Shown: positions 1-40,354, counted from the stretch's first letter. The stretch: 40,354 nucleotides of DNA from Raillietiella orientalis (GCA_036172245.1 JAYWIR010000179.1:1-40354); one strand, 5' to 3'. A program made the numbers and translations. Notes: a model not told the origin generated them from the letters alone.

Positions 1-240
1 CCTCTTGAAGATGGACGAGTATTCTTAGGTACAAAGGACGAAGCCCTAATTTACATCCTATCCTACAGGAGTGGCATCTGCCCGGGTACTGGACGCGCAT
101 CTCAGGTTCGGCGGAATATCTCCGCCAAGTACTGGGAGGCGTCATCCTCCGGAATCTCTAAGACTGGGACCGAATGAAGGCCTCGGTCCGCGAATTCTGC
201 GAGGAGTTCCCTGTGTACTGCCTGCCCCTGGGGTTTGATG
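1..240 (+). pseudogene. Outermost host element Z, ORF2 fragment 1 (end of AP endonuclease and start of linker), degenerate
   Basis: Translates as ...EWHLPGYWTRISGSAEYLRQVLGGVILRNL*DWDRMKASVREFCEEFPVYCLPLGF, matching the WRLPGDW...DWD.LK.SVREFC segment of the other copies. It is cut at 240 by the 3' end of element A. Confidence 0.85.
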
Positions 241-271
241 TTGCCACCCAAGTACGCCCGGGGCGTTTATT
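241..271 (-). terminator. 3' terminal AATAAA + hairpin of A
   Basis: AATAAA CG CCCCGG GCGTA CTTGGG T GGCAA. Confidence 0.75.
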
Positions 272-457
272 AAAACTCTACAAAAACGTGGTACGAGGTC
301 TTACTAATGGCTGCACAACTTCGGACCTGCTGAGACGCCGGGACGCCGGGACGCAGTCCGGCGGGATGCTGCTCGGCAGTGGAGGGCAGTTTGGGGGAAA
401 ACAAAAAAAATAAAATAAAGAAAAACAAAAGGAGTTTGGAAGGAATAAAATGGATCA

Positions 458-2352
458 CTATCCACTAGGAGGAGGGCCCATCCTTCGCAGGATGCCCTCT
501 AGGTCCTTCTGCGATTGTCCCAGATGGGGCCATCTCGCAGCTCTTTGCATGAAGCTCACAGCGTACGGGATGACTTCCCTCTCGTTGGCATCCACTCCTT
601 CGTCGCAAGTGTCAGTCTAAGCCGCCACGATGCCCCGTATGCAGCAGAGGGCTGCGACAGCTGCAGCGGGCTGCAGGGCGTCCCGCAAGAAGAGGGGCCG
701 AAGAACGTCTCTGGGCGCGCTGCCCATTGGGAGCCCGAGGGTCGTCCCGAACCGTTCCCACAGGGGTCGGAGGGCAGCACAGTCAACATGTAGGTGGGGG
801 AACGATTTCCGCTCCTCACACCTGGCACACTCAGGCCTTACACTTCCCCGCGTCCAGTGGAAGCGCCGCGCGTTGCAGGGTAAACCCCAGTGCAGCAGCA
901 GTAGTGCCGACTCTTGCCACTTTAGCGGGAGAAGCCTGGATCCGATTAATACTAAGGGCCACTTCAGGTCAACCGTCGGGATGCCGAGCAGCTCGTCCCA
1001 TCTAACAAGTCCACTTGGGAGGGCACTCGGGGTCGTGGCACCTGCCAGTTCCTCCATGGTCCAACCGCTCATTTTTTTTTCCCTGCCTGCGATCCGGCAG
1101 GAGATGTGCCACTTCGGCGTCCGCCCGCTGGTTAGAGCCCTTCGTAAGAAGGGCAGCGTCGAAGGCAAAGGGGTGGTCTCTGCCCACGTGCACCTGGCGG
1201 GACACTCCAGAGTGGTCCGCAGGGTGCAGCAGGCGTTGAATCCGATTCGCAGGCGGTACCATTCACGTCCAGTCTGGAGGTTCAGCTTGGCCCACGTCCC
1301 AACGGATTCCTCCAGCCAAGCGAAGGAGTTGGCGGGGCTGCATACCGTCCAGCCGTTCTCTCTTACCAGGGATTCCATGCGCCCAAGGAGAAGGCCGCAA
1401 CTCCTGACCTTCCGACCGTGGCACAGAAGGAAAGACGCGAGTACTTGCGTCCTCGATATACGGCTGGCAAGGATGCGGGCCGGGACGCACCAGGGGGTGT
1501 TCCACGTCTTTGCTGCGATGGCTAGGGTGCGCCATCGCAGCTGTATGTCCATGTGCTCCAACGTCAGGAGTCCAAGACCACCGTCCCGACGCGGAGCGCA
1601 TATGTGCTTAAGAGGTGCACGAGGCCTCCCACTGCCCCAGAGGGCGATGCGGACAAGGTCTTTAGTCCTCTTCTTCAGATCAAGGGGGACGGGGCACACA
1701 AAGAGCAGGAGCGGAGGATGGAAGCCGCGAACGCGTTCCACACCGCGGCCCGTTCCGGCAGAAGGAACTTGCCTTCCAGGAACGGGTCGATTGCCAACTC
1801 TTCCTTTTGGAGACGAACTGACCAGGCTTCTGCGAGGCAGGATTCCCCCAACGGGACACTCAGGTACTTCAGGTACCTGGCCGTGGAAATCCCCAAGCAA
1901 ATTCAGTCAGGCCGTCCATCCCACGTCGCACCCACCGGTACCACCGACGACTTCGCCTTGCTAACCTGCAATCCAGTCCCACGGTTTAGCAGATCGAAGA
2001 AATCCTCGACTGCGGCTGCCAGGGCGGACATCGGCAACATCAGCAGAAGATCGTCGGCGTACGCAGCCACTGCGGGCGTGCCGGGGCACGAGCTAGGCAA
2101 GCCAGCCAAGGTCACCCTGTACGCTCTCAGCACCAAATCAAAGTAGGTGCTGAAGAGCAGGGGACTAAGGCTATCGCCCTGACGTATGCCCCGCCGCACC
2201 GGCACGCCGTACGTTGTTTGTGCGCTGGAGGAGACGTTGATTAGCGCTTTACGCCAGCAAGAGCGCAGGTAGCAGTGAAGAGAGGGTGGGAAGCCCATGA
2301 GACCCAAAAGCTCCAACAGTAGCTCCTGGTCCACGCAGTCGAACCCCTTGTG
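458..2352 (-). pseudogene. Element A ORF2 piece 4 (RT C-terminal half and zinc finger)
   Basis: FDCVDQELL...RGIRQGDSLSPLLF...AYADD...YLKYL...CARCEERKSFPHLHVDC, with stops and frameshifts. Confidence 0.88.
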
Positions 2353-2363
2353 TGCTCCAGGGT

Positions 2364-2370
2364 GGACGTG
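2364..2370 (+). promoter_or_regulatory. DPE-like RGACGTG motif at the 5' end of B
   Basis: GGACGTG 11 nt inside the TSD-defined end; conserved in all seven visible 5' ends. Function is inferred. Confidence 0.55.
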
Positions 2371-2446
2371 TTTTCTTGGTGCTCCTCGTGCCAGGAAGTC
2401 TCCCTTAGTGCAAGCGTCGTGTGGTTCGGTGGTCGATCAGGCAGCG

Positions 2447-4122
2447 ATGCCAGACGCGACCACCAGGGATGGCCAGGGGGCAGCAGAAACGCCGCCCCCA
2501 GAGGCGATGGAGAGCCAGGGGGCGGCGGCAACGTCGCCCTTGGAGTCGATGGAGGCGAGGGCATCCGCCCCCACAGAATCGGTCCCCGCTGCAACGCGGG
2601 CGTGGAGCGCCGTTGTGTCGGCGCCATCGCCTGCAGCCGCGGCGGAATTGTCGGCCTATGTAGAGGAGGGGTACAAACCCTCATTGTTCTACAAGGTAGG
2701 CAATTTATATTCTTTAGAGAGCGCGCGCGCCTTCTCGAAGGGCAGGCGCGCTCTCGATGTGAAAGAGGAGGAGCTCAGCGCTATGACCATCGGCAGCGGG
2801 GATCAGTACGTTAAGGTCATCTGCAAACAAGCAGAGCTGGCCCAATGACTGCTTAAAACCATCGTTGTGATGGGGACGCGCAGGCTTCTCCCCACTACGG
2901 CGGACCGCAGCATGGTGGTCCACCTGTTAGGTGTTACCGCGCGGATGCGCAAGGAACAGGTTCGCGCCGCGTTGGAGGAATACGGAACGGTCCACGCGCC
3001 GTGGACGAAAGTTAGTCCTTTCGAGGACTACACGGGGCTACAACACGGCCTCACTGCTGCGCGCGTGACCGTTCGGGAGGGCTGCACTCTTCCCCACAAA
3101 CTGGTGGTCGAAGGCGAAACCGTCGACCTCTGGTATGTGGGGAAGCCGAAATACTGCGGCTTCTGCAATACGTCGGGCCACCTCAAAAAGAGGTGTCCCA
3201 ATGTGCAGTGCCAAGTATGCGGCACAATGGACCACACGAGGGAGGTGTGCCCAAAAGCAGCAGTGCGGGTAATTTCCATGAGAAACCTTAAAAAACGCGC
3301 TCGGCTTCTGCAGAAAAGGCTGGCGGCGAAAGCTGCCGCGAAGGCTGTGCCACCACCGACCAAGACCCAGGCCGCACTCGAGACCCCGGCGACCAACGCC
3401 GAAAAAGTTGAGGGAGCATGCGAGGAGACTGAGTGGCAAGTGGCAACTGCCAAAAAATCAAAGAAGGAGAGGAGGATGAAAAAGAAAATCGCCTACCAAC
3501 AGAAGAAGAAAGAGCAGGGTAGCGCGATAATTAAAGAGTGCAGCGTCGTTGTCGAACGCGTTCTCGATGTTGCCGAACGCTGCCGGAAAGAACTCGCCGC
3601 TACCGACGACCTCCCCTTTGTTGACACAGTCAACAGCGAGGGGAGCGAGCCGGCGGCGGCGTCCGTCATTGACACAACCATCGATGACGTAGCCTTTGCG
3701 CGAGCCGCGGAGGAGCTGGCAGCTTCGTTGCAGCCAGAACCCTCCAAGACTGGCAAGAAGGCCGTAAGGCATCCGGCCTCCCCTCAGGGATCCCCCACTT
3801 CCGACCCCGAGGTGGAGGCCGGAAGCGCAGCCTCCGTTTCCGCGGCACCCCGCAAGATGGCTGGACGTAAGTCCACAAAGCCGAGGAAGCTCGTCTCCCC
3901 CGTCGAGGGGGAAGAGATGGCTTCCGTAAGCAAGGGTGCCATGAGCGTGGGAAACTCGCGGGACCCGTCGCCCGAGAGAAACCCACGCGCGGACACGGAG
4001 GGGATGGAGGGGTGGAGGCCGAACAGGTGCCTCAGGTGCCTGAGAAGGCCGAAACCCCCATGGACATCTTGCCCGCCTCGCAAGAGGAGGGCTCCCTCAC
4101 ACCTTAATCTTCCCAGCAGTAA
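2447..4122 (+). pseudogene. Element B ORF1 (zinc-knuckle protein), premature TGA at 2846 and frameshift near 4010
   Basis: Contains CGFCNTSGHLKKRC and CQVCGTMDHTREVC, and ends in the TAATG overlap at 4120-4124. Confidence 0.87.
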
Positions 4123-4285
4123 TGCCAAGAATCTCCTCCCGCCGTCGTCTGCGCATCGCCGTTTGCAACGCGAACGGCATGACAGACGCCGGCAGGAGAC
4201 GAGACATGGCCGCCCTTCTGGAGTCTTACGACCTTGCGCTGCTGCAGGTGATCCACGTGATCTCTGCAGAAGAAGCGCAGGAGAT
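4122..4285 (+). pseudogene. Element B ORF2 piece 1 (AP endonuclease N-terminus)
   Basis: MPRISSRRRLRIAVCNANGM...LLQVIHVISAEEAQEI, interrupted by C. Confidence 0.85.
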
Positions 4286-4315
4286 TTCTCACCCGGTCAT
4301 GCCGGGGCGTTTATT
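4286..4315 (-). terminator. 3' terminal AATAAA + hairpin of C
   Basis: AATAAA CG CCCCGG CATGA CCGGG T GAGAA. Confidence 0.8.
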
Positions 4316-4639
4316 CCATATAACATAACCAAAAGAAAACCAGTTATACAAAATAAACCAGTTGGGAACCAAACTCCCAACCGACGACTGAACAAGAATG
4401 AAGAGAATATTGCTGGCACGCAGGCCAGAGTAAAAGTTTTGTGAACGGTGTGGAAGGGCAGGGAACACAAAGAAACCAAAATAAAATAAAAACAATAAAT
4501 AAGGAGGACGGGATAAGGGTCTTTGGGATCGCTCTGGAAGACACGGGGATAAAAGCATGGGCACCGGAAATTTTCCGAGGGAACGGGGATGGGGTATAAG
4601 TGGGCGAGAGGTCGCAGGGGTCACCGGATAACGGTGTTC

Positions 4640-7600
4640 TCAAAGGTCTGTAAACCGGCGATGTATGCCGCTGATGTCCTCATTAAACTTGTCACGAAGA
4701 TGAGACCACCTTGAAGCCTTCTCCATGAATTGAGCTGCAAGCAGGTGAGCCTCCTTTCGCTGCGCTGACAACTCCAGGGCGCAGCGGGCCTTCACGATGG
4801 CGCGAACGCAACACATAGTTGCGACAATCGCGCCAACCGAAAGTCCATTTCTGCTGAAGAAGCGCCGCAGCACATCAATGGCAGTGCCTCCTTGTGGCAT
4901 GATGGCCGGAATGAGCCTTCGCCACAGTTCCCGGAGGTCACCGCAGTCCAGCAAAAGGTGCGGAAAAGACTCGATCTCTCCGCACCTTAAACAGTTTGGC
5001 AAAGCAGCTCCCCCGAAAACGATGCTTCGCTTCCTAATACAGTGTAATGCACAATGTAAAAAGAGCAGCACATCTTGTTTCCACTGAAGGGGGAACACGG
5101 AGCTGTCCAAACAAACGGGAAGAACCACTATCTCTCCGGAGGGCACACTTCAATGTTCGCTCCACCGAAGCAGGCCCTTCGCCCGATTCCGAGGTGTGGC
5201 GGCTTGCACCAGCTCCTTTGTCGTCCAGCTGCCGAGGAGCTTACTGACTCCCGCTATTTAGCAGGAGAACTCCCATTCTGCCGGTAGGCAACCGTCGTTG
5301 CGTGCCCTGAGGGCAGACAGCGCTGCGGCGAGTGGTGTGGCGGCCAGACGATCCGACAACTTCTTGTCCTGCATGACTTCGTCCATTTGATGACTGAGGA
5401 GAAGTCGCAGGCGTCGAAGATCTTCCAAGCGCGTTCCTTCGGAAGCTGCCCACGATGAAAAAGATTCCTGTCGCTATGCATTAATGTTCATGGGGCTGCA
5501 GGAGATCCAGATTTGGGCTTCCAGCAGTGAGGACAGCTGCCTCAGCGGAAAGCCAAACCCTATTCTGATGTGTCGAAATCAGTCCCTCGCTTCACGAGCA
5601 GCGCCTCAGTATAAGGCGTGCGGGTAAGCACCAGGGCGTACACCACAGCTTGGGACAGAGCCGCAGCATGCGAAACTGCACCTGCAGTTCGATGCTCTTT
5701 AAGTCGAGGATGCCCAAGCCTGCATCCTGACGCGGCGCCACCAAGTCTTTAAGTCTAACACGGGATCTTGCAGCGCCCCACAGCGCTTTGCGTAGAAAGC
5801 GCTGCGCCCAGACTTTCACTTCCTGAGGGGGTGGAAAAACAAAAAACAAAGGGCGGAGTAGGGGGGCAACGAAGGTGTTCCAGATGCAGGCCCGTTCCGG
5901 CAAGACGAACTCGCCTCCTGAAAACGGGCCAAGTGCACGCTCTGCCTTCCGAAGGCAGTCCGACCACGCTTCTGAGTTGCAGAAGTCGCTCAACGGCACG
6001 CCAAGGTACCTGAGGGACCTGCCCGTGGGGATCCCCAGGTCGATCCAGTCGGACTGCCCCTCCCACGTCGCACCAACCGGAACAACCATACACTTACTCC
6101 TGTTAACGCTCACGCCCGCACCGCGACGAATCAACTCAAAGAAGTCTTCAAGCGATGTCGCCGGGGTGGACATGGGCAACAGGAGAAGCAGGTCGTCGGC
6201 ATAGGCTGCCACGGCCGGCGTACCTGGACAGGAGCTCGGCAGGTTGGCTAGCGTCAGCCTGTAAGCCTCCAGCACCAATTCGAAACAGATGCTGAAGAGC
6301 AGCGGGCTTAAGCTATCACCCTGCCTAATTCCTCGTCGTACCGGCACGCCATACACGTGACAGCCACTGAAAACAATGGATGTAATCGCGTGGCGCCAGC
6401 AGGAGCGCAAGTACGCCAACAGGGATGCAGGAAGACACAGACGTTCCAAAAGCTCAAGAAGAAGCTTTTGGTTCACGCAATCGAAAGCTTTGTGCAAATC
6501 GACTGCAACCGCCAAGGCTCCCGGTGTCTCCCTTTGCGTTTCGCGCCTCCGTCGGTGAGAGATCGAAGGCGTCGCTTCCGCACGACGATCCACCGCCACA
6601 CGATGCTGCAATTGCAGCCATGTGCGGATGAACAAGAGATTCGCGTCCATGGACCGCCCAGGAACAGCGTACGTCTGCTCCGGACTTACCAAGGATTCCG
6701 CGATCCTACTCATCCGCGCCACCCAAAGTTTCGAGAGCAACTTGACGTCCGAATTCACTAATGTGATCGGACGCCAGTTGTTCAGTTGGCGCAAATCTCC
6801 GCCTTTCGGCAGTAGACGCACCTTCGCTGAGCGAAACGAGGCGGGGACATCGCCCGAGTCTCGCATCAGCGACGAGAGTTGGAGCACCAGCGGGATGAGC
6901 TCCGCCGCAAAACACTGAAAGAATTCCGCGGGGAGCCCATCTTCGCCTGGCGCTTTTCGTCTCTTGAGCCCCGTGATGGCCGAGGAAATTTTCTCTGTTG
7001 TGAAGGGCTCATCAAGACGCGCGCGTTCCTATTCGTCTGCAACAGGTGCATCAATCGGCAGAAGCACCCGAGAGAGGCTGCGTTCCGTCGGTGCCTCTGC
7101 ATACAGAGAAGAGTAATAGCGCCTGACTATCCGTCGCACGTCGGCTGGAGCCGAGCATTCCCGGTCCTGGTCGTCGAGCCGAACTGTCGACCCTGACTGC
7201 CAGACCTCGCGCTCGGCCTTGGCTTTGAAATCGGATAATCGACCAACGTCCGCGCGCCTGGAAAAGGAGCGGGCCTTCAGAAAATCTCTGCTGTTGGCTA
7301 CGCCCTCTCCGAAGCCGCGCGGAAGCTGGTGCAAGGGAAACCGGCAGCAGAACTCGCGGACCGATCTTTTCAGCCGTCCCAGTCCTCGAGCTCACTTATG
7401 GCAAAGCCGAGGAGGTACTGGCGAAGATGCTCAGCCGCCTCCGGGTGGCTTAGCCAGTCTCCCGGTTTCCTCCAAAAACAGTTTGGAGGCCCCTTGCCTG
7501 GCGGGAGCAACTCGAACTCGAGCCTGTTGTGGTCAGAAAGCACGGACGGCACGGGACCTCTCCGACCCACTCGACAGAGCAAGTGTTCATCCAGATATAC

Positions 7601-8194
7601 GTGGTCCGGCGTTGCTGCCATAACAGGGTCGCTAGCGAACAAGTTGCACGCGTGCACGGACTCGCACATCTCTTCCGCTAGCAACTTTTCCCTTTTGTGG
7701 GATCTATTCTCGGAAAGCAGGTGGACGTTAAAGTCCCCCGCAATGAGATGGGCCACAGTAGGGTGAAATCGAGTGAGCCACTGGCTTTGAAGGGTACCAA
7801 AGGACTCAATCCTTTCGGCCCATCGTCCAAAACCGCTCGGCGCGTACACGTTGGTTACGACAAGGTCGATCGAGTCGGACCACTTGAGTACAAGCTGTCC
7901 CACTCGACCTTCCGTGTCGAAACGAACACTGCGCACCGCTCCCGCCAAAGTTCCTCGCACGAGGAAAGCGACGCCGCACGTACGTGCAACGCCGCACCTA
8001 TAAAGTAGCGTTCCGCCCGCGCGCCGTTCGCTTTCGGCAGCCTGCTCTCCGGAGATGCTGTGAATCTCCTGCAGGAGCGTCAAGTCGAAGGCACGCAGAA
8101 CGTCAGCCACTAGTCGCCTCTTCTCCTCGTTCTGGAGCCCGTTGACGTTCCAAGACGTTACGGCAACACGACGAGAAGACGCGATTGCCCTCAT
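4640..8194 (-). pseudogene. Element C ORF2 (endonuclease, RT, zinc finger), frameshifted
   Basis: SWNVNGL, LQEIH, AGDFN, LSDH; DLHKAFD, RGIRQGDSLSP, YADD; CLRCGEIESFPHLLLDC. Confidence 0.9.
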
Positions 8195-10097
8195 CACTGC
8201 TGGGAAAGCGAGGCCGTGCTGCTCGCCTCACTCGGCGAGCGGGCAGTAAGCAGCACGACGGGCTGGAGGGCGCGGTCGCCACCGGCCTCAACTGTGCTGC
8301 ACGTAATCGGGTGCTCCTCCCCGGGTTCAGGACCTGTGGGTTCCGGGGAAGCACTCGCCGTTCCGCGGCGAGTATGTCACGCCTCAGGGCTTCAGCCCTG
8401 CGGGCGCTCGCTCCCGCGCGAGTAACGCGTCGTTCAGCGGCGCTATCGGACTCCTTTGCGGAGTCTGATGCTCGCACGATCGACGTGCGCTTGCATCCGT
8501 CCGATTGCACCGGAATGGTCTTCTCGGCGGTCACAGAAGCGGACTTGCACGCGTTGAAGGCGCTGGCTTTTTCCTTAGAAGAGGCACAAGCCGCGCGTGT
8601 TTTCGTATTCCCTCGACTGCTTTTTCCTTTGGAAGAGCTCAGGGATGGATGTTGCGGAGCTTTTTTTGGAGATTTTTCTTTCCTACTCTCCACAATCTTT
8701 TATACGCTTTCGCGATTTTCGGAGGCTTCCGCGACAGTAGTTGCGGAAACCTCCGGGATTTTCGCTGCGTTCTCTGAGGGCGTTGCTTTCGCTACGCATT
8801 TAAAAGGCGGCAACGGAGTCACCTTCTTGACAGTCAAGAGATTGCTCCTCTCCTGCCGAGTCGGCGATGGGGCGACTGCATGCAGCGTGCTTTTGCTCGT
8901 TGCGACGCTGCTTTTTACGGCTTTCGTAGCCTTTGCAGAGGGGCTTGCGCTGCAGTGGAGCTGTCCGGAACTCGGAAGGGACAACGGAACGGCGCAAGAA
9001 GTCTTCCCACTGTTGCGATCTTCCTGTTTTCCTACCTTTCTCACCAGGGTGTTACGGAGATTTCCTGGTTCCTGGCTCGGAGAGGTGCCTGCGAGTTCGG
9101 CAGAGAGGGAAGACACGGCACGCGTCAAACCCTCACGCCCCTTTTTCATTGGCTTCCCCGCCGTCACCTTCCCCTTTCGGGGCGTTGCGGGCGGGGATGC
9201 TTTCTTTTCATCCGCGGATCGCTCGTGGTTTTTTGCGAGTTTTCGCGGACGACGTTTTTTATTTGCCGCTGCGGCTTTTCGTGCAGTGGTCTCTTGAACC
9301 CGACGAATTTCTGCTGCGGCTCTTTTTCTTGCAAGTACCGGGCACTTTTTGATTTCGTGCCCGGAATCTTTGCAATAGCGGCATCTTGGAGAGGGGCACT
9401 CTTTAATTCGGTGGCCATCCTTGCCGCACTGCTTGCACGCGCGAGTCTGGCCTATGAATCACAGGTGAACGACCGTGCCGTTCACCTGCAGCTGCTCAGG
9501 CACAACACGCCTGTTCGCGACGGTGATCCGCGCGGAGGCTTGTCCAATGTGGACAGAGGGGAAATCCTTTAGAGGATTTGGTCTCCTCCACAAAGCGTGC
9601 ACTGTGGCGAACTTTGCCAGCACACTTACGACATCGCGGTTGGAGATTTCCGGTTCGATGTCGGACAATTGAACGACAAAATAGTCGTTCATCGCGGTAG
9701 GTAGGACTTCCTTGCCATTCATGGTCAACGGCGTACGAAGAAGGCGCTGCACAAGTGCTGCGTTCTTGCACCGAATCTTCGTATATTCCATCCTGCCAGC
9801 AGGCATTATGGCAAGGAGTTCCTCCTCGCGAACGCCGATCCGGACGTGCTCATCATTGAGCTCACGACCGATTCTCCCGTTGAGGGGCCCACTGACCTTA
9901 TAACGGAGTGCAGGCATGTATCCTGATGACACATATGCCTGGAACTCCGCATCGCAGGGTCCTGGTCTTTGGGAGGTAACGGCGGCGTAACTCCTCACCG
10001 GGGGCGAGGACACCATTACGGAGGATGGGGCCAATTCAAGTGCAGCTGAAGTGCATCCAGTGGCTTGCTCTTCTACACTATTTTGTGTACTGGCCAT
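8194..10097 (-). pseudogene. Element C ORF1 (zinc-knuckle protein with long K/A/S-rich tail), stop at 9459 plus later disruptions
   Basis: MASTQNSV...HL*FIGQTRACKQCGKDGHRIKEC...CRYCKDSGHEIKKC, ending in the TGATG overlap at 8192-8196. Confidence 0.85.
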
Positions 10098-13640: not shown

Positions 13641-13827
13641 CCCCTTCCCTTACCCTCCCAACTTTTCTTTTCTTTTTTGTTTTGTTTTTTGTTTTTCCCC
13701 CTTCCCTGTTCTGCCGTGGTGGACTGTACCGGTCTGCGAACTGGTGACCCGGCAGGCTCTGTGTTTCTTCGTGCGTGGCTGGAGCAATGGTGCAGCCACC
13801 GCACGTCTTTGTAAAAGTTTATTTTAC

Positions 13828-13858
13828 AATAAACGCCCCGGCGAAATCCGAGTGAAAA
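13828..13858 (+). terminator. 3' terminal AATAAA + hairpin of B
   Basis: AATAAA CG CCCCGG CGAAAT CCGAG T GAAAA. Confidence 0.8.
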
Positions 13859-14783: not shown

Positions 14784-14788
14784 CGAGC

Positions 14789-25156: not shown

Positions 25157-25160
25157 GACC

Positions 25161-26163: not shown

Positions 26164-26193
26164 TTATCACCCGGTCACGCCGGGGCGTTTATT
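26164..26193 (-). terminator. 3' terminal AATAAA + hairpin of E
   Basis: AATAAA CG CCCCGG CGTGA CCGGG T GATAA. Confidence 0.8.
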
Positions 26194-29400: not shown

Positions 29401-30070
29401 TGTGGTGGTCAGAAAGCTCAGTCAACAATCTTCCTCTCCTACCCACACGCGAATGCAGGTTTTCATCGAGGAAAACGCGATCGAGCGATCTTTCCATTCC
29501 AGGTTCGCTGACCATCAAGTTGGCGGCGTGCACGGACGCGCACATCTCGATGGGCAGCGCGCGCTCCCTCGGGCGGCTCCAATCGTCGGAGAGCAGGCGG
29601 ACGTTGAATTCCCCAGCGACGAGGTGCGTCACTTGGAAGCCGGAGTTGTTGAGCCAGTGGCTCTGCACGTCACCAAAGAAAGCTACTCTTTCTTCGAGGT
29701 AGCGAGAGCCACTCGGCGCATAGACGTTCGTAACGACGAGATCGATGGACTCGGACCACTTGATGACAAGCTGGCCTATCCGTCCGTCGTCATCGAAACG
29801 AACACTACGCACCGCTTCCGCCATTTGTCCTCTTACGAGGAACGCGACGCCGCACGTGTGTGCGCCGCCGCACCGCCAATGTAGCGTTCCGCCTGCGCGC
29901 TCCTCGATTTCGGCTGCCTGCTCGTCGGAGATTACGTGAATCTCCTGCAGCAGCGCGAGGTCGAAAAGGCGCAGGGCGTTGGCTACTAATCGCCTCTTCT
30001 CGTCGTTCTGCAGTCCGTTCACGTTCCAACACGTTACGGACAGACGACGAGAAGACGCGATTCCCCGCAT
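26477..30070 (-). pseudogene. Element E ORF2, ~1197 codons, near-intact (single in-frame TAG at 29135-29137; GDFN changed to GEFN)
   Basis: ORFs 29135..30070 and 26477..29053 are in one frame. Endonuclease, RT (DLHKAFD, RGIRQGD, YADD, KYLG) and CVRC..HLLLDC motifs are present. Confidence 0.93.
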
Positions 30071-31991: not shown

Positions 31992-32056
31992 AGTCGTCAA
32001 AATGTACGACGCCAAGATGAAGCGGATGAAAGCACGGAGACGAGAGCGAAGAAAAA

Positions 32057-32063
32057 CACGTCC
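32057..32063 (-). promoter_or_regulatory. DPE-like RGACGTG motif at the 5' end of E
   Basis: GGACGTG 6 nt inside the end. Confidence 0.55.
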
Positions 32064-32069
32064 GCACTC

Positions 32070-32538
32070 GATTGAAATCTCCCGCTATGAGGTGAGCCTT
32101 CCGCACGCTCGTGTTCGCCAGCCAGTCGCGCTTCAAGGATTCAAGCAGCCTGGTACGGTTGCTGTATCCCTTTTGACCGGTTGGGGCGTACACATTCGTG
32201 ACGATCAGATCGATCGAGTCCGACCAGCCGAGAGTCAGCTGACCGACCCGACCGTCGTCATCGAAGCGCACGCCCTTCACGGCAGCGTCGATGGCCGGCT
32301 TCACGAAGAACGCGACCCCGCAGGTGTTGCGGAGGCCGCATCGCCAATACAGCCGACCCCTTGCGATCGTCTCGATTTCCTGGGCGTCTGCCGCAGTGAT
32401 CACGTGGATCTCCTGCAGCAGCGCCAGGTCGAGCTCACGCAGGGTGTCGGCTGTATCTCGCCTGTTGCCGTCGTCGCGCAGCCCGTTGACGTTCCAACAG
32501 ACCGCGCGAATCCGACGGCGACTGGCGAGCCCAGGTGT
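32070..32538 (-). pseudogene. Element A ORF2 piece 1 (AP endonuclease N-terminal part)
   Basis: Motifs CWNVNGL, LLQEIH, TNVYAP and AHLIAGDFN. The start codon is mutated (TAACA instead of TAATG). Interrupted by E. Confidence 0.88.
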
Positions 32539-34411
32539 TAGTCCAGGGAAAACGGCGATGCGGCGTCCGCCACCTGCTGGGACGGGACGCTAGGTGGAGG
32601 GGGAGGAGGGACAGGTACTGAAGGCACCTTTTCCTCCTCCTCCATCGGTGCCGGCGCGTCGGCCGGATCACCCGCACGTGGAGTCGCGCCTACCTGTTCG
32701 CCTTCCTCCATGTGTTCGGGCTGCTCAGGTTTCGCGACTGCAGGGAGGATTTCACCCCCCTGCTCTCCCTCCTCCATGGGGGTGGCAGACTCGACGGCTT
32801 CCGGACGTGGGTATTCCCCCTCCGGGATTCCCACGCTGCCGCTTCCTTCCGGTTTCTCCTCCTCGCTGGTGGAGGGGAGGCGCCTCCTGGGTTTCTGGGA
32901 CTTGCGTCCCGACTTCCTGGGGGTGCCTCCGAGGAGGAGGATCCGCTTCCGGCCCCCAGGTCGCACTCACCTGCGGGGGCCTTCTTCGTCGGAGCCGACC
33001 TGCGTACGCCCTTGCGCGACGGGGTTTCGCGCTCGGCGAGCGTTGCTGCGAGCTCCTCCGCCGCTTTCTCGAAGGCCGCGTCTTCGCCAGCGGCGACCGT
33101 TGCCGCGGGCTGCTCCGCGACCTTATCGAGCGCGGCGTCCTCGTTGACGGCGAACGTTGCCGCGGGCTCCTCCGCGACTTTATCGAGCGCGGCGTCCTGG
33201 CTGTCGGCGCGCGAGTCTCGCGTCTCACCCTCTACACGTAGATTGGGCTCGTCCACGCGAGTATTCATCGCGTCCGCATCAGCTGTTCCGCGAACATTGC
33301 CGCGGGCGGACTCGGGAGGAACGGCTAAGCGTTCCAGTGCTACCGAGCATTCGTGGAGTTTTTTTTTTGAAAGCGGCGCGGCTTTTTTCTTGTTGCCGGC
33401 AGTTTTCTTCTCCGAATTTTCTTCTATCATCACTTTCTTTTTTTTCTCTTTTCCGGCCTGAACCAGCTGCCAACCCTTCTCCATTCCCGCGTCCACAAGA
33501 GCTATTTCCTCCGACGTCTGTACGGGAGGAAGGGAGGCTGGCAGTTGGGAACGGCCATTTTCGCGAGCTGGTCTCTCTACCAGCTTTCCACGTTTTCCCT
33601 GCGCCCTTTTGGCGGCAGGGGGCAGCGGGGTGGGGCGCTTGGGGCACACGCGCCGAACGTGACCCTTTTCGCCGCATAGGTGGCACACAATGTTCGGGCA
33701 CCTTTTTCGTAGATGCCCTACTGCATTGCAGTAGCCACAAAATTGGCGTTTTCCCACGTACCAGAGGTCCACCGCTTCTTGGCAGACCTCCAGCTTATGG
33801 GGAAGCGCACCACCCTCTTTTACCGTGATACGCGCCGCAGCTTGACCTCCGAAAAGGCTATTGTAGCCTTGGAAAATCGTGGACTTCGGCCACAACGCGT
33901 GCACTTCTCCGTGCTTTTGAAGCTGTTCTCGAACCGCTGACCTCGTCATGCGACTGGAGATCCCAGTGAGATGGACCACCACCGAGCGGTCCATCGTTAT
34001 CGGCAAGATCTTCCGACCATCAACGATCAGCGGGTCGGTGATCAGGTGTCGGGCCAAGGTGATATCCTTGCATAACACCTCGACCCGCTGCCCGCCGCTG
34101 AGGACGCAGAGGCCGTCGAGATCTTTTTCAAAAATATTGGCGTCCTGCAGCGCCTTCGTAAAGGCGCGTGCAGTTCGCCCATCGAAAAGGTTGCCTACCT
34201 TGTAGACTAGCGAGGGTTTATACCCCGCTTTCTTGTAGGCTTCCATCTCGGCCATGGCTTCCACGCTAGGCGCGGCCACCATGGCGCTCCAGGACCTCGG
34301 CGTCGCTGGAGACGATTCCGGGGCGGATGCCCCTGATCCAGTAGGCTGTGGGGACGAACAAGCCTCCATCACGCCTACTTCCATCGCGGTGTCCTCTAGC
34401 AACGCTGCCAT
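32538..34411 (-). pseudogene. Element A ORF1 (gag-like nucleic-acid-binding protein, two CCHC knuckles), one frameshift near 32950
   Basis: Contains CGYCNAVGHLRKRC and CHLCGEKGHVRRVC. Built from ORFs 32690..34435 and 32538..32966; the stop abuts the ORF2 start. Confidence 0.85.
33040..33198 (-). repeat. 57-bp (19-aa) tandem repeat, about 2.7 units, inside A ORF1
   Basis: DAALDKVAEEPAATFAVNE / DAALDKVAEQPAATVAAGE / DAAFEKAAEELAAT. Confidence 0.8.
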
Positions 34412-34492
34412 CGGACACCGACGATGTGCACGCACAAATCACTTAAGAAGAAAAAACACTCGCTTTGCCACGCAGGCGGAGCGCAGAAAAAG

Positions 34493-34499
34493 CACGTCC
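34493..34499 (-). promoter_or_regulatory. DPE-like RGACGTG motif at the 5' end of A
   Basis: GGACGTG about 11 nt inside the end. Confidence 0.55.
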
Positions 34500-34510
34500 G
34501 CTCTCCACAG

Positions 34511-35348
34511 CGGGGATTCGGCGGGGAGCTGCGGAACGACCAGGCATACCACGACGCCCGTCTTTACTCTAGGACTCCCGACGTTCGACGCCTGGCGGAG
34601 TATAAAGCTGGGGCTGAGCGACAGACCTGGCAATCCGGGTCGCACAGCTTGCTGGACCCCCAAGGCCAGGAATGCTCAGGTCCGGCGAAAATAAACCGCA
34701 TTTTACGGAACTATTACTCCTCCTTGTACGCGCGTAGAACAACAGAGCGCGCCGTGGCGCAGCGCTTGCTGCCGCAAGGCGCCCCGCGCTGCAGGAGGAG
34801 CAGGCACATCAACTCGAGGACACTTTCTCGATGGCGGAGATCATCTTCACCATTGGAAAGCTCAGAAAGAGGAAAACACCAGATGAAGAAGGTCTGCCCG
34901 CGAAGTTCTACCAATGCTTCGTGGCGGAGCTGGCCCCCCTGGTGCATCGGCTTCGCATGCTGATCCGAGAACAAGGGTACGTCCCCAAATCGTTCCGGTT
35001 AGCTAGAGTACGTCCTCTGCCGTAAGGAGGAGACAATCGCAACGTAGGCAACTAACGTCTTATCACAGTAGTGAATGTGGATGCGAAGTTGCTTGTCAAG
35101 CTTTGGGCTGAGCGACTGGGACGGGTAGCGGATTCCGTGGTGAGTCCGGAGCAGATATACGCTGTTCTCGAAAAAAGCATGGAGGCCAAACTGTTCCTCG
35201 CCAGTACATGGTGGCTGTTTCAACAAAGCGAAGACCAGGGAGGTCAAGAGAATCCTGGATTCTTTTCTGACTAGTGAGGGGACGCCCATCATGGAAGAGT
35301 TGCGCCCGATGCCCTTGCGGTTGCAGTGGATCTGCGTAAAGCGTTTGA
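34511..35348 (+). pseudogene. Host element Z, ORF2 fragment 2 (linker and RT N-terminal half up to DLRKAFD), degenerate
   Basis: Resumes where fragment 1 stops (RGFGGELRNDQAYHDARLYSRTPDVRRLAEY...), then KRKTPDEEGLPAKFYQ, VNVDAKLLVK, SPEQIY and AVDLRKAFD, with several stops and frameshifts. It is cut by the 3' end of G. Confidence 0.85.
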
Positions 35349-35379
35349 TTTTTACCCGGATTACCTCGGGTCGTTTATT
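35349..35379 (-). terminator. 3' terminal AATAAA + hairpin of G
   Basis: AATAAA CG ACCCG AGGTAATC CGGGT AAAAA. Confidence 0.8.
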
Positions 35380-35563
35380 AAAAAATAAACTTTATAAAGA
35401 AATTATTTATGGCTGTGGCAATGCTCGAGCCAGAGGCGAGGAACCACGGAGCCTGCCAATTTACCGGTTTCTAGACCAGTACGTTTCACCAAGGCAGCAG
35501 GGAAAGGGGAGAAACAAAAAAATAAACAAAAAGAAACAAACGGTGGGAGGGAACGGGAAGGGA

Positions 35564-38500
35564 TCACTGATGCTGCTGGGGCCGGATCACTCCCTCTCAG
35601 GATGCTGGCAAGCTCTTGTTTGTTGTGAACATCCAGGTAAAGCCATCGCGACGCCTTCCTCAGGAATTGGGAGGCGCACTGGATGGCGTCCTGACCGCCT
35701 GGTCCTTCCGTCGCCGTGCTCCATGCGGCGACGATCCCACGAAGCCAGCACAAGGCTCCTATCGAGGACGCTGGCCGGAGGGCGTCGGCAACGAAGAAAG
35801 GTTTTAGTGCGTCCCTGGGGTTGCCGCAAGGGATACCGATGGTCGCAGCAAATCGGAACCAAAGGGGCCGAAGTGCAACACAATCCACTAGAAGGTGGGG
35901 GAGGGACTCCCGTTCCCCGCACCTTACACAATTGGGATCCACCGCTCCTCAGGTGCAGTGGTGTCGACGGGCGTTGCAGGGGAGTCCCCAGTGCTGCAAC
36001 AGGAATGCCGATTCTTGCCATTTTAGGGGGAGGATGGAAGTGTTCGTAAGAAACGGGTGCCACTTCAGATGTTCAGTCGGAACATCCAGCAGCGCTTTCC
36101 AGCGCAGAAGTCCATTAGGAGGCGTACTCGGGGTCGCAGCATCAGTTAGCAGGCCCGCCTTCCACTCTCTCTGCTTCTTGTCCTTCCCTCAGATTTTTAT
36201 TGTAACCTTCCACTTCGCCGCAACATTGCTGTCCCGATGTTCCACAAGGGAGTCCAGCGCAGCAGCGAGGGAGGTTCTTCCTGACCAGGCTCTCTTCTTA
36301 GGATCCTCCAGGATCTCACGAAGCGTGTAACTTCTGTAACACCCAAACAGGAACCTTCGTTCCTGATGGCAGGGTTGCATGCCGAACTGTCCCCACGTGC
36401 GAACGGTTTCCTGCAACCAGGCACTGCTGTTCGCGGGGAGACAGGTAATCCATCCTTGATTTTTCCTTGCCAGCGCAGCCACCCTCCATAGCTGAAGCCC
36501 ACATCGGTTGATGCGGCTTCGATGGAGTGCAAGAAACGGCGTAAGTCCCGTCTTGCCGGTATCTTCCTGAAGGAGGAGACGTGCAGGGACGCACCAACAG
36601 GTGCACCACAACTCTGAAACGAGTGCCGACAAGCGGAACTGGAGCTGAAGCTCCAGCCGCTCCAGCGTCAGGAGGCCCAGACCACCATCCCGACGAGGAG
36701 CGCACAAGTCCTTTAAGCGGACTCGGACCCTCCCGTTGCCCCAAAGGGCGATACGGAGGAGGTCCTTGGTCCGCTTTTTAATCCTCTCTGTGGGGGGGCA
36801 AACAAAAAGCAGGGGGCGGAGGAGAGGAGCCGCGAAAGTGTTCCAAACCGCGGCCCGTTCAGGCAGGAAAAACCTGCCGCCTCGGAACGGGCCGATTGCC
36901 GTCTCTGCTTTTTGAAGGCAGCCGGACCACGCTTACGCAGGGGAGTAGTCCCCCGACGGCACACCAAGGTACTTCAAGTACCTCAGCGTAAGAATTCCCA
37001 AACGGAACCAGTCCTGCTGCCCTGCCCACGCCGCACCAACTGGCATCACGGACGACTTCGCCCTGTTCACCGCAAGCCCGGTTCCTCGATTCAGCAGGTC
37101 GAAGAACTTCTCGACCGCCAAAGCCGGGGTAGACATAGGGAGCAGCAGCAGAAGGTCGTCCGCGTATGCTGAAACGGCCGGCGTACCGGCACAGTCGTGC
37201 GGCAAGTGCGCCAGAGTTCCCCTGTACGCTCTCAGTACCAGCTCAAAGTAGGTACTGAAGAGCAAGGGGCTCAGGCTGTCTCCCTTTCGGATCCCACGCC
37301 GTACCGGCACGCCGTGCAAGGTCTGCCCGCTGAAAGTAACATTGATGAGCGCGTCGCGCCAGCAGGAGTGCAGATAGGCCACTAATGAGGCCGGAAAGTC
37401 CAAGCGTTCCAGAAGCTCCAGAAGGAGATTCTGGTCGACGCAATCGAATGCTTTTCGCAAGTTGATTGCGACCGCAAGGGCTTCCTCCCCCGCCCGACCA
37501 TCCAACCCCTTGCCGGCGCACGCACCGGAATTCCGGCTGCGCACCAAGCTCCTTTCATGTTGAAGCTCTAGCCAGGTGGAAGCGGGGAATAGGTTCGCCT
37601 CCATGCTTCGCATCGCAACAGCATACGTCTGTTCCGGGCTGATGAAGGGGTTTGCAACCCGTCCCATGCGCTCAGCTCAAGCCTTAGATGTCAACTTGGC
37701 ATCCGCATTCACTATTGTCATGGGACGCCAGTTGTTCAAGCTCCTCAGATCTCCTCCCTTAGAGAGAAGCCGCACCTTTGCCGAACGAAACGAGGCGGGA
37801 ACGTCACCTGTCTCGCGTATCAGCAAGGTGAGTTGTTGTACCAGGGTGGTTAGCTAAGCATCAAAAGTTTGATAAAACTCCGCGGACAGGCCGTTTTCCC
37901 CTAGATCCTTGCGCCTCTTGAGCTTTCCGATGGCCGAGATGATCTCGCTTATCGTGAAAGGCTCGTTGAGGGACTTTTTCTCCTCTTCCCCGTTCGCAGG
38001 AGCGCCTTCCGGAAGCAGAAGTTGGGAGAAATCTCGCTCGGGAGGCGTTCTTGCGTACAGGGAGGAGTAAAAACGCCACAGCAGACCGCGGATCTGAGCG
38101 GGTGCCGAATGCTCCTGGCCCTGATCGTCTAGCAAGCTGGCCGATCCTGACTGCCAGGCTTGCCTCTCGGCTCCCGCTTTGTATTCCGCCAGTCTGCGGA
38201 TGTCGGGGCTCCTGGCGAAACGACGGGCCTGCAGGTAGGCTCGTTCGTTACGGACCCAGGTCCCAAAACCCGTAGGTAAGCGGTGCAGAAGGATCTGGTC
38301 GCAGAACTCCTGGACCGACCGTTCTAAGCGGTCGAGATCCTGAAGTGTCTGCATCCTGAAGCTCCGTATGAACGTGCGGAGATGTTCCGTCGCGTCCGGA
38401 AGCTTAAGCCAGTCCCCTGGCAAACGCCACGCTGACGAGGGGGGCCCCTGTCGCGCGGATGGATTTCAATCACGATTGGTCGATGTTCGGACAACTCGCA

Positions 38501-38996
38501 CGGTAACTTGCAGCGCTTACCCACACGAGTGCACAGGTGCTCGTCAAGGAACACGTGATCGATGTTGTCCTCTATCCCTGGTACACTGACCAACAAATTA
38601 CAAGTGTGCACCTCCTGGCACACCTTGTAGACTAGGTCCCGCTCGTGATTGGACCCATCCGGTTTCAGACGAACGTCAAAATCGCCTGCAACCAGATGGG
38701 CATTCCGCACGCCTGCCTCGGTCAACCAGTCGCGATGGAGGGCAAGGAAAAATTCTTTGCTGGACCTCCTGTTCGTCAGGTCCGCTCCGCTCGGGGCGTA
38801 ACCGATCGTGATGATGAGGTCGATCGAGTCGGACCAACTGAGAGTCAGCTGGCCGACAAGACCGTGATCGTCGAACCGTACGCCCCGAGCCGCGGCCTCG
38901 ACGGCTGGCCAAAGCAGGTAGGCGACACCGCAACTTTTCGCTCTCCCACACCTGTACCATAGCCGCCCTCCGGAGATGCGTTTCATCTCCCGGGCT
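35564..38996 (-). pseudogene. Element G ORF2 (partial endonuclease, RT, zinc finger), disrupted
   Basis: ORFs 38324..38986, 37854..38423, 36933..37667, 36189..36707 and 35403..35942; motifs NLRKAFD, YADD and CVRCGERESLPHLLVDC. Confidence 0.88.
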
Positions 38997-39006
38997 CGTA
39001 CAGTGC

Positions 39007-39013
39007 AGACGTG
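39007..39013 (+). promoter_or_regulatory. DPE-like RGACGTG motif at the 5' end of C'
   Basis: AGACGTG 10 nt inside the end. Confidence 0.55.
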
Positions 39014-39113
39014 TATCCGCGTCTATCCGCGCCAACGATCGGGCAACTTTGTGCCCGCGTTTTCGTTCGCAGTTGTGTGTTCCTGTGCAATCTGCCAAGT
39101 AGCATAGTGCAAC

Positions 39114-40354
39114 ATGGCCAGTACACAAAATAGTGTAGAGGAGCAAGCCACTGGATGCACTTCAGCTGCACTTGAATTGGCCCCATCCTCCGTAATGGTG
39201 TCCTCGCCCCCGGTGAGGAGTTACGCCGCCGTTACCTCCCAAAGACCAGGACCCTGCGATGCGGAGTTCCAGGCATATGTGTCATCAGGATACATGCCTG
39301 CACTCCGTTATAAGGTCAGTGGGCCCCTCAACGGGAGAATCGGTCGTGAGCTCAATGATCAGCACGTCCGGATCGGCGTTCGCGAGGAGGAACTCCTTGC
39401 CATAATGCCTGCTGGCAGGATGGAATATACGAAGATTCGGTGCAAGAACGCAGCACTTGTGCAGCGCCTTCTTCGTACGCCGTTGACCATGTATGGCAAG
39501 GAAGTCCTACCTACCGCGATGAACGACTATTTTGTCGTTCAATTGTCCGAAATCGAACCGGAAATCTCCAACCGCGATGTCGTAAGTGTGCTGGCAAAGT
39601 TCGCCACCGTGCACGCTCTGTGGAGTAGGCCAAATCCTCTAAAGGATTTCCCCTCTGTCCACATTGGACAAGCCTCCGCGCGGATCACCGTCGCGAACAG
39701 GCGTGTTGTGCCTGAGCAGCTGCAGGTGAACGGCACGGTCGTTCACCTGTGGTTCATAGGCCAGACTCGCGCGTGCGAGCAGTGCGGCAAGGATGGGCAC
39801 CGAATGAAAGAGTGCCCCTCTCCAAGATGCCGCTATGGCAAAGATTCCGGGCACGAAATCAAAAAGTGCCCGGTACTTGCAAGAAAAAGAGCCGCAGCAG
39901 AAATTCGTCGGGTTCAAGAGACCACTGCACGAAAAGCCGCAGCGGCAAATAAAAAACGTCGTCCGCCAAAACTCGTAAAAAACCACCAGCGATCCGCGGA
40001 TGAAAAGAAAGCATCCAAGCCCGCAACAATCCGAAAGGGGAAAGTGACGGCGGGGAAACCAATGAAAAAGGGGCGCAAGGGTTTGACGCGTGCCGTGTCT
40101 TCCCTCTCTGCCGAACTCGCAGGCACCTCTCCGAGCCAGGAACCAGGAAATCTCCGTAACACCCTGGTGGGAAAGGTAGGAAAACAGGAAGATCGCAACA
40201 GTGCGAAGACTTCTTGCGCCGTTCCGTTGTCCCTTTCGAGTTCCGGACAGCCCCACTGCAGCGCAGGCCCCTCTACAAAGGCTACGAAAGCCGTAAAAAG
40301 CAGCGTCGCGACGAACAAAAGCACGCTGCATGCAGTCGACCCATCGCCGACTCG
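39114..40354 (+). CDS. Element C' ORF1 (zinc-knuckle protein), apparently open to the window end
   Basis: ATG at 39114 (MASTQNSV...). It has TGG where C has TGA, and the second knuckle reads CRYGKDSGH (Cys to Gly). Confidence 0.75.
   Translation, partial: MASTQNSVEEQATGCTSAALELAPSSVMVSSPPVRSYAAVTSQRPGPCDAEFQAYVSSGYMPALRYKVSGPLNGRIGRELNDQHVRIGVREEELLAIMPAGRMEYTKIRCKNAALVQRLLRTPLTMYGKEVLPTAMNDYFVVQLSEIEPEISNRDVVSVLAKFATVHALWSRPNPLKDFPSVHIGQASARITVANRRVVPEQLQVNGTVVHLWFIGQTRACEQCGKDGHRMKECPSPRCRYGKDSGHEIKKCPVLARKRAAAEIRRVQETTARKAAAANKKRRPPKLVKNHQRSADEKKASKPATIRKGKVTAGKPMKKGRKGLTRAVSSLSAELAGTSPSQEPGNLRNTLVGKVGKQEDRNSAKTSCAVPLSLSSSGQPHCSAGPSTKATKAVKSSVATNKSTLHAVDPSPT

Follow-up and report, generated by a model that had tools for sequence, protein, structure and literature searches.

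In some green algae, islands of self-nesting LINEs are regarded as putative centromeres, and in the published accounts used here it is not settled how such LINEs locate their own copies. The stretch of DNA analysed in this work, 40,354 nt from Raillietiella orientalis (the window), consists of LINEs within LINEs and raises the question of whether their insertion was targeted to resident relatives.

The window is filled by nine nested LINEs

The parse Z[A[B[C],D[F],E],G[C']] accounts for all 40,354 nt of the window. In a base-level tally, 40,280 nt belong to element pieces and 74 nt to second copies of the TSDs, and the nest structure given in a preliminary description is thereby borne out to the base. 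Nine elements lie in four nesting levels within 40 kb, which is the clustered nesting known from Zepp and ZeppL. The parse also gives the order of insertion. The pieces and the landmarks in them are the following.

1-240, plus strand: left fragment of Z, the outermost host; ORF2 about aa 236-306 (tblastn); abuts the 3' end of A
241-2352, minus strand: A piece 1; 3' terminal motif at 241-271, 3' UTR, C-terminal part of ORF2 up to the KAFD codons
2339-2352: left TSD copy of B, at the end of A piece 1
2353-4285, plus strand: B piece 1; 5' end and ORF1, followed by ORF2 as far as about aa 62
about 2364-2371: 5' end motif of B, GGACGTGT, in B piece 1
4275-4285: left TSD copy of C, at the end of B piece 1
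4286-10215, minus strand: C over its full length of 5930 nt (clade I), with the 3' motif at 4286-4315 and the 5' motif at 10197-10205
10216-13858, plus strand: B piece 2; ORF2 about aa 62-1199, 3' motif at 13828-13858
10216-10226: right TSD copy of C, at the start of B piece 2
13859-14783, minus strand: A piece 2; ORF2 about aa 272-584
13859-13872: right TSD copy of B, TCGAACGCCTTGTG, at the start of A piece 2
14767-14783: left TSD copy of D, at the end of A piece 2
14784-19668, plus strand: D piece 1; 5' motif at 14788-14796, ORF1, ORF2 to about aa 1060
19657-19668: left TSD copy of F, at the end of D piece 1
19669-25160, minus strand: F over its full length of 5492 nt, with the 3' motif at 19669-19698 and the 5' motif at 25149-25157
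25161-25820, plus strand: D piece 2; C-terminus of ORF2, 3' motif at 25791-25820
25161-25172: right TSD copy of F, at the start of D piece 2
25821-26163, minus strand: A piece 3; ORF2 about aa 166-272
25821-25837: right TSD copy of D, at the start of A piece 3
26155-26163: left TSD copy of E, at the end of A piece 3
26164-32069, minus strand: E over its full length of 5906 nt (clade I), with the 3' motif at 26164-26193 and the 5' motif at 32056-32064
32070-34511, minus strand: A piece 4; N-terminus of ORF2, ORF1 (582 aa open), 5' motif at 34492-34500
32070-32078: right TSD copy of E, at the start of A piece 4
34512-35348, plus strand: right fragment of Z; ORF2 about aa 304-584, terminating in the KAFD codons, the insertion point of G
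35349-38995, minus strand: G, partial; 3' motif at 35349-35379, ORF2 about aa 62-1197
38996-40354, plus strand: C', 5' part only, leaving the window; 5' motif at 39006-39014, ORF1

C' splits G where C splits B, and the G/C' boundary was corrected to 38995/38996. The absence of other transposon classes and of host DNA, also claimed before, was confirmed in the 40 kb. Pfam searches of the 216 six-frame ORFs of at least 90 aa returned solely RVT_1, Exo_endo_phos, zf-CCHC and zf-RVT. Neither Rfam families nor tRNAs were found across the window, the tandem repeats were limited to four short rows, all within elements, and snRNA, 5S, tRNA or microsatellite targets did not occur within the window.

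The elements are of the LINE type and 5.5-5.9 kb long, with an ORF2 encoding an endonuclease-reverse transcriptase. The nucleotide identity of ORF2 is 55-76% in every pair but B-G (93%), in agreement with the several diverged lineages described earlier. All copies in the window are dead. The best preserved is E, which has one in-frame stop in ORF2 and, as judged by eye from the translations, probably one frameshift in ORF1.

Junctions and reading frames

Exact TSDs flank D (17/17 bp), F (12/12) and E (9/9). For B (13/14) and C (9/11) they are near-exact; TSDs of 9-17 bp had been ascribed to all five elements. The TSD of A is degenerate with 6/11 matches, and the 5' side of G lies outside the window. 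When the inserts were excised in silico, single tblastn HSPs ran in frame over the joints in five of the six testable cases (B, D and E in A, C in B, F in D). The joint of A in Z requires a 1-nt adjustment, and the claim that the host frames resume after each excision holds, with this exception, for the six.

The empty site of F was found in the public sequencing run X1. In one contig, 19656 is directly followed by 25161, and the sequence extends for 126 and 248 nt to the two sides; it represents a D-like copy that is devoid of F and has a single TSD copy. X1 was the sole sequencing run matched; it contains 14% of the sampled words, in contigs only. In the contig rows listed, most window junctions are unbridged; record 2 ends at 10213 and record 6 reaches only 16 nt into A. 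Three loose ends of X1 contigs were searched against the window, of which two gave no match and one was C sequence (5348-5369). Among the sequencing runs searched, no RNA run with sampled window words was found.

The eight insertion points correspond to reference ORF2 aa ~62 (twice), 166, 272, 305, 584 (twice) and 1060. All of them fall within ORF2, which makes up 62-65% of the element length, and these positions agree with the earlier account. Seven of the eight inserts are antisense to their host and E alone is in sense.

The elements are complete at both ends

All seven visible 5' ends are complete and share a conserved motif, RGACGTGY, at the element 5' end, 3-11 nt inward of the TSD. SRGACGTGY has 11 matches in the window, six of which are element 5' ends (against 3.2 expected). 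The seven visible 3' ends are also complete, and each carries the 3' terminal motif noticed in the preliminary description; the motif scan gave one additional chance match to AATAAACG. The 3' end consists of two hairpins, GTTTATT-loop-AATAAAC and CCCGG-loop-CCGGG, followed by three variable bases and a final AA. A poly(A) or A-rich tail, a feature of the L1 group, was absent from all seven, which end in hairpin-NNN-AA with a longest A run of 5. The terminal hairpins formed in five of the seven MFE structures and may take part in recognition by the RT. No two-sided change was observed across the five predicted pairs of the terminal hairpin; the upstream hairpin was misaligned and is judged from single folds only.

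A metagenome scan with the 3' motif gave 14 loci. None showed blastn or tblastn similarity to the elements, and these loci are therefore chance motif matches. Searches for related loci yielded no locus in the viral contigs and no relative in the genome contigs collection.

Protein domains resemble those of the L1 group

Exo_endo_phos was detected in five ORFs and RVT_1 in nine, above the Pfam cut-offs and in the order APE then RT that characterises ORF2 of L1-group non-LTR retrotransposons. The nearest solved protein was human L1 ORF2p (E 2.5e-41, RT region), and R2 proteins with solved structures gave E 1e-16 or weaker. Judged from solved structures rather than from a tree, L1 appears to be the LINE group to which the RT is closest. 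For zf-RVT, the Cys-rich zinc-binding region expected at the C-terminus in the L1 group, the scores were 28.1 bits in F, 26.6 in B and 17.3 in E, with a cut-off of 27.5.

In ORF1, two CCHC knuckles are invariant in six ORF1s, and Pfam also detected zf-CCHC. A structural model of ORF1 (pLDDT 70-93 for residues ~60-220) matched tandem-RRM proteins with a best E of 1.6e-5; an RRM in ORF1 was not found by Pfam. With two RRM-like folds and two CCHC knuckles, ORF1p is of Type I (RRM and CCHC knuckle), one of the features of the Tx1 clade. A Type I-like ORF1 is reported to be consistent with Tx1, which is described as an animal clade. Identity to database relatives is at most 30%, bar a few unnamed proteins, and, apart from the solved proteins above, none of the database matches bears a Tx1 or L1 label.

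B and G occupy the same site in two diverged hosts

B in A and G in Z enter their hosts at the identical nucleotide, both antisense, within the codons of the RT motif KAFD. The joints read ...AA/TCGAACGCC for B in A and ...AA/TCAAACGCT for G in Z, with the slash marking the joint. Around the site, the likeness between the hosts A and Z is 60-67%, and their differences number 53/44/86 in codon positions 1/2/3. For B and G the corresponding numbers are 55/48/78 over 12246-13616 and 14/12/32 over 13051-13450. The third-position excess in A/Z as well as in B/G indicates that both pairs diverged as coding lineages. Two derivations from one event were considered and excluded: a composite B[C] that was retrotransposed twice, because the 3' parts of B and G differ under coding constraint, and a single insertion behind A[B] and Z[G], with which the third-position excess in the divergence of the flanks does not agree. 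B and G were inserted independently.

With seven uniform insertions, an exact coincidence in any of the 21 pairs has a chance of about 0.002. The A junction lies 2 nt past GGGTTTGA. The window has six distinct GSGTTYGA sites, three of them with an insert; this motif was defined post hoc, when the data had already been seen. Six of the eight KAFD sites are free of inserts, the identical GCGTTCGA of E among them. The site specificity is that of one independent pair, B and G, and the other lineages were each seen once. We take the common site as a sign of targeting, and its reuse in hosts so far apart favours some form of targeting of relatives.

The site common to B and G had been overlooked in the preliminary description and is the strongest evidence for targeting.

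C and C' are not independent

C and C', and with them the 5' parts of B and G next to them, are 94-100% alike. The insertion of C' in G is therefore not independent of that of C in B, and not all of the eight insertions counted before are independent events. To judge from their likeness, these parts look homogenised. The simplest account would be gene conversion, after insertion, between the two inverted copies, which lie about 25 kb from each other; the tract would span 2.4 kb of the 5' parts of B and G in addition to C and C'. In two X1 contigs a C-type 3' end adjoins the same B-like site, and the flank agrees with B in 24 of 28 letters. C, C' and these X1 junctions may all be copies of one event. 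The X1 variants listed over C number 31, of which 11 equal C' and 20 are private, showing that X1 carries a third version of the C lineage.

Targeting of relatives and its alternatives

The island may have arisen by successive rounds of complete target-primed reverse transcription within one L1-group LINE family, in which at least seven diverged lineages took part and new copies were directed to resident relatives; we adopt this explanation tentatively. Staggered cuts would leave the TSDs of 9-17 bp. The targeting would be at least partly guided by sequence and specific for the lineage, the B/G lineage entering antisense into GCGTTYGA of the KAFD codons in other lineages and the C lineage a site ~62 codons into ORF2 of B-like elements. 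This mechanism of site recognition is one that we infer.

The restriction to ORF2 contributes little, since the preference is weak and not significant (P ~0.03-0.07). We calculated P = 0.026 for eight events, 0.041 for the seven independent ones and 0.065 when G was omitted as constrained by the window. The antisense bias (7/8) is not significant either. These values apply to a single 40 kb window selected for being a nest. The earlier proposal that relatives are the preferred target receives partial support from the exact reuse of the B/G site; the ORF2-only bias does not reach significance and not all events are independent. That relatives offer a safe harbour, and that insertion knocks out competitors, are conceivable consequences.

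Among six insertion sites, no common nick-site consensus was found. No motif links the sites of D, E and F to that of B/G or to one another. D is the nearest relative of B/G (75% nt) and E the nearest of C, yet both are inserted at other sites. Conserved windows hold no excess of the seven sites, and their mean conservation percentile of 0.52 excludes homology- or R-loop-guided targeting of conserved motifs as a general rule.

This lack of enrichment, the missing common motif at the D, E, F and C sites and the scatter of the insertion sites from ORF2 aa 62 to 1060 would fit insertion that is directed by region or chromatin into one chromosomal domain, for example a centromere, which consists of relatives by coincidence and whose sequence is not read. 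This has been proposed for Zepp and ZeppL, which are reported to build such clusters, one per chromosome. The B/G site would then be an endonuclease hot spot or chance. Such clustering is possible though unlikely, as B and G would coincide exactly only with the low chance given above. Moreover, the clusters of ZeppL consist, in the account used here, of about 60% ZeppL, a single family, and other transposons, whereas one family with at least seven lineages at 55-76% identity makes up 100% of the window.

In a reading that we judge rather unlikely, every lineage lives on its relatives as a homing hyperparasite and re-inserts at the same codon, so that a LINE-on-LINE parasitic network builds pure LINE islands. 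A master copy would reside at a fixed place in ORF2 of another LINE, its transcript would extend slightly into the flank, and the flank RNA would anneal to the homologous place in other relatives and prime reverse transcription. B/G would return in this way to KAFD and C/C' to the codon ~62 codons into ORF2. Since only ORF2 would be conserved enough between lineages to act as a guide, no insert would be found in ORF1 or the UTRs, and the near-identity of C and C' would be a co-conversion tract and not ordinary gene conversion. This reading is modelled on the co-transcribed target of R2/R1-type LINEs, where annealing of downstream target sequence on the RNA is reported to strengthen target-specific integration. 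R2/R1-type LINEs are of a different clade, and R2 reached only E 1e-16 against the elements here.

Passive accumulation, in which insertion is near-random and copies survive only in the dead transposon DNA of a compact genome with a sole active transposon, is improbable. It is in line with the death of every copy in the window and with the non-significant ORF2 and orientation biases; two X1 contigs, in which F-like sequence lies beside letters that have no match in the window, might also agree with it. However, it leaves the common site of B and G unexplained, as well as the total lack of host DNA among nine elements.

An assembly artefact or a plain segmental duplication as the source of the apparent nest and of the B[C]/G[C'] pair is very improbable: C/C' with the 5' part of B/G are so alike over the junction that they could confuse an assembler and the only run found, X1, is as sparse as stated, but at every junction a conserved element terminus directly meets a TSD, the remaining element pairs (55-76% alike) are too different for confusion, the B and G flanks at 60-67% are not one duplicated block, and the empty site of F is present in X1.

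Relation to known LINEs

Self-nesting LINEs of the Zepp/ZeppL type and transposon-targeting Tx1 families are already known, and a literature search for self-targeting LINEs gave nothing closer than Zepp and Tx1 among the papers listed. Zepp in Chlorella and Coccomyxa and ZeppL in Chlamydomonas and its relatives are L1-type LINEs with copies nested in copies, as here, and this nesting has been explained by targeting of the copies already present. They are described as GC-rich, in clusters with no or few genes, in which they resemble the window. Zepp arrays are reported to contain mostly 3' ends due to frequent 5' truncation, whereas the visible 5' ends here are all complete. ORF1p of the Coccomyxa element is described as HTH_1, in contrast to the RRM-like folds and CCHC knuckles of ORF1 here.

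The Tx1 clade is an L1-group clade with lineage-specific insertion into defined multicopy sequences, transposons included, and in this it may resemble the present elements. Published cases are Tx1 in Tx1D, Tx1-Mar in Mariner-N4_AMi, and Tx1-8_Crp and Tx1-4_AMi in LTR retrotransposons. The putative target here, the coding sequence of related LINEs, is absent among the Tx1 targets named in these reports. Human LINE-1 shares the APE-RT architecture of ORF2p and the TSD-flanked insertion. The elements here differ from it by a structured 3' end of two hairpins instead of a poly(A) tract, by the lack of 5' truncation and by an ORF1 that is not of the Transposase_22 type.

With their sharp ends, the absence of 5' truncation and the reuse of an exact site in diverged relatives, these elements offer a direct handle on how a LINE finds its copies. 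If their lineages home to ORF2 of relatives, LINE coding DNA would join the known specific targets of LINEs, and transposon lineages would compete with each other through insertional inactivation.

Composition and nesting of the window

The window has 40,354 bases, about 58% G+C and no N. A comparison of the window with itself revealed mutually related sequence throughout, at 65-76% identity and on both strands, with one inverted pair standing out at 89%. When 216 six-frame ORFs of at least 90 aa were searched with Pfam, only RVT_1 (reverse transcriptase, RT), Exo_endo_phos (AP-type endonuclease), CCHC zinc knuckles and zf-RVT were found, beyond which there was one sub-threshold chance match. 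Rfam families, tRNAs and satellites were looked for across the window and none was found. For the parse, two ORF1 types and the best-preserved ORF2 were used as tblastn probes.

26480-30103, minus strand: best-preserved ORF2 (element E), 1208 aa, one in-frame stop

All fragments were placed in the order Z[A[B[C],D[F],E],G[C']], where brackets denote insertion inside an element, which bears out the nest proposed in the preliminary description. With exact boundaries the pieces account for 40,280 nt and the second copies of the target-site duplications (TSDs) for 74 nt, leaving no remainder.

Element lengths and matching positions between the two TSD copies
A: 5782 nt; 6/11
B: 5565 nt; 13/14
C: 5930 nt; 9/11
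D: 5533 nt; 17/17
E: 5906 nt; 9/9 (ATTTCAATC, 26155-26163 / 32070-32078)
F: 5492 nt; 12/12

The inserts were then excised in silico. For B, D and E in A, as for C in B and F in D, a single in-frame tblastn HSP ran through the junction; for A in Z a one-base shift was needed to restore the frame. E, the sole insert in sense orientation, lies within the codons for the endonuclease motif GDFN of A. In the public sequencing run X1 (90-99% identity to the window, 14% of sampled words present), one contig joins 19656 straight to 25161, extending 126 nt on one side and 248 nt on the other. It is a D-like element that lacks F and has only one TSD copy; since it aligned at 90% identity, it represents a paralogue, or the copy of a relative, rather than this locus. 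Two other X1 contigs leave F-like sequence at window positions 21406 and 24112 for AT-richer letters, which have no match in the window when up to 3 mismatches are allowed, and may be 5'-truncated copies beside other DNA in that genome. We conclude that the nest is genuine and arose through a succession of target-primed insertions, each of full length.

Element ends

The seven visible 3' ends all have AATAAACG followed by a hairpin (CCCGG-loop-CCGGG), after which come three variable bases and then AA; none has a poly(A) tract. One extra AATAAACG match, inside D, is by chance. Single folds predicted an upstream hairpin, GTTTATT-loop-AATAAAC, so that AATAAAC doubles as a stem arm. Both hairpins occurred in the minimum-energy fold of five of the seven ends, and no covariation was seen in them in the alignment fold. 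When metagenomes were scanned for the 3' motif, 14 loci came up, all unrelated to the elements, and no relatives were found in viral contigs and genome contigs. The 5' ends are complete in all seven visible cases and have RGACGTGY in common, preceded by variable bases and lying 3-11 nt inside the TSD, a feature absent from the preliminary description.

Positions of the 5' motif RGACGTGY
about 2364-2371
10197-10205
14788-14796
25149-25157
32056-32064
34492-34500
39006-39014

The longer form SRGACGTGY has 11 matches in the window against 3.2 expected, six of them at visible 5' ends. The motif is kept across clades whose UTRs otherwise fail to align, and may act as an internal promoter or as a signal by which the element end is recognised.

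Lineages and proteins

B and G share 93% nucleotide identity in ORF2, all other pairs 55-76%; C and E make up one clade, with A, B, D, F, G and Z as the remainder. From this divergence, the island holds at least seven lineages. Every copy is dead. The best preserved, E, has its ORF2 stop at 29135-29137 and, in translations judged by eye without alignment, probably also a frameshift in ORF1 after the knuckles. At 30073-32084 on the minus strand of the window, the ORF1 of E seems to resume in another frame as a 403-aa Lys/Ser/Ala-rich ORF, the start of which is similar to the end of ORF1 in C'.

Two CCHC knuckles are invariant in ORF1. Its predicted structure, of good confidence over residues of about 60-220, matches tandem-RRM proteins; Pfam did not detect an RRM in ORF1. 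As modelled, ORF1 has the Type I arrangement reported in L1 elements of plants and in Tx1-like elements (PMC5203782). The ORF1 coding sequences of A (33033-33209, 57 bp x 3.1) and B (2471-2561, 42 bp x 2.2) contain tandem repeats, which are expansions in low-complexity parts.

The closest solved protein was human LINE-1 ORF2p (E-value 2.5e-41), with R2 proteins at 1e-16 or weaker. In a search of 1.84 billion representative proteins no match was labelled Tx1 or L1, and only three stood out, at about 40% identity or more, the rest being near 30%. These were the unnamed protein P0001 (57% to E, 73% to F), a 132-aa fragment (60%) and a distant relative of 1555 aa, P0082 (37%; 33-39% per stretch). 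P0082 has four successive partial RT segments, each running from the equivalent of ORF2 aa 348 to aa 458-657, which may reflect a gene caller having read across a tandem or sense-nested array.

The inverted pair B[C] and G[C']

Identity varies along the length of this pair (8857-14627 / 40354-34583).

Identity along the inverted pair and its flanks
C/C', C-B junction and first 2.4 kb of B/G: 94-100%
B/G 12650-13450: 83-86%
B/G from 13451 through the 3' UTR: 73-76%
Host flanks, A versus Z: 60-67%

Over 10227-12245, where the two copies are nearly identical, the differences are even over codon positions 1/2/3 (20, 11, 21). A third-position excess was observed in the diverged part of B/G (55/48/78 overall; 14/12/32 in 13051-13450) and in the flanks of A and Z (53/44/86). 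This excess indicates that A and Z were coding while they diverged, as were the 3' parts of B and G, and hence that B and G are independent insertions. The 5' part of B/G together with C/C' appears to have become near-identical afterwards, for which gene conversion between the inverted copies is the simplest explanation. Between 8857-12650 and 40354-36560 identity is 94-100% and then falls stepwise to 84%, 74% and 63%; this mosaic looks like a conversion tract with one edge near 12,100-12,650. C' therefore does not count as an independent event, which leaves seven independent insertions.

Insertion sites

The elements had been proposed to insert only into ORF2, which makes up 62-65% of an element. 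All eight insertion points do fall there, but the statistics are weak: P is 0.026 for eight events, 0.041 for seven and 0.065 when G is set aside, as the window size forces G near A. An orientation bias does not hold up either: seven of the eight inserts are antisense to their host (one-sided 0.035), or six of seven among independent events (0.0625).

B in A and G in Z, both antisense, are joined at the identical nucleotide of the codons for KAFD, an RT motif within ORF2. In host sense, the sequence up to the junction ends in AAGGCGTTCGA for B and in AAAGCGTTTGA for G; the junction of A in Z lies 2 nt beyond GGGTTTGA. The chance of such an exact coincidence for any pair among seven uniform insertions is about 0.002. 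The motif GSGTTYGA, picked after seeing the data, carries an insert at three of six distinct window sites, and its frequency is not above chance (8 matches, 7.9 expected). Six of the eight KAFD sites in the window are empty. The D, E, F and C sites have no motif in common with B/G or with one another, and conservation at the seven insertion sites is not unusual (mean percentile 0.52). In two X1 contigs a C-type 3' end adjoins the B-like site that C occupies in the window, and 24 of the 28 flank letters agree with B; both contigs may simply be further copies of the insertion of C in B.

Discussion

We favour directed insertion into relatives at lineage-specific sites, a reading that stays tentative at just under even odds. 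Domain-directed clustering of the Zepp/ZeppL kind is rather less probable. Zepp and ZeppL nest within their own copies, but they are described as 5'-truncated, whereas the window elements are full-length with structured ends. In addition, one family makes up about 60% of a Chlamydomonas ZeppL cluster as described, in contrast to the pure island of many lineages here. Passive survival of insertions in dead DNA is unlikely, and an artefact very improbable. As to directed insertion into relatives, Tx1-clade families are described as targeting DNA transposons and LTR elements (PMC4494074), whereas the target here would be the coding sequence of related LINEs. Going by these descriptions, full-length copies, structured ends, the many lineages, purity and a LINE-coding target set the island apart from Zepp/ZeppL and Tx1.
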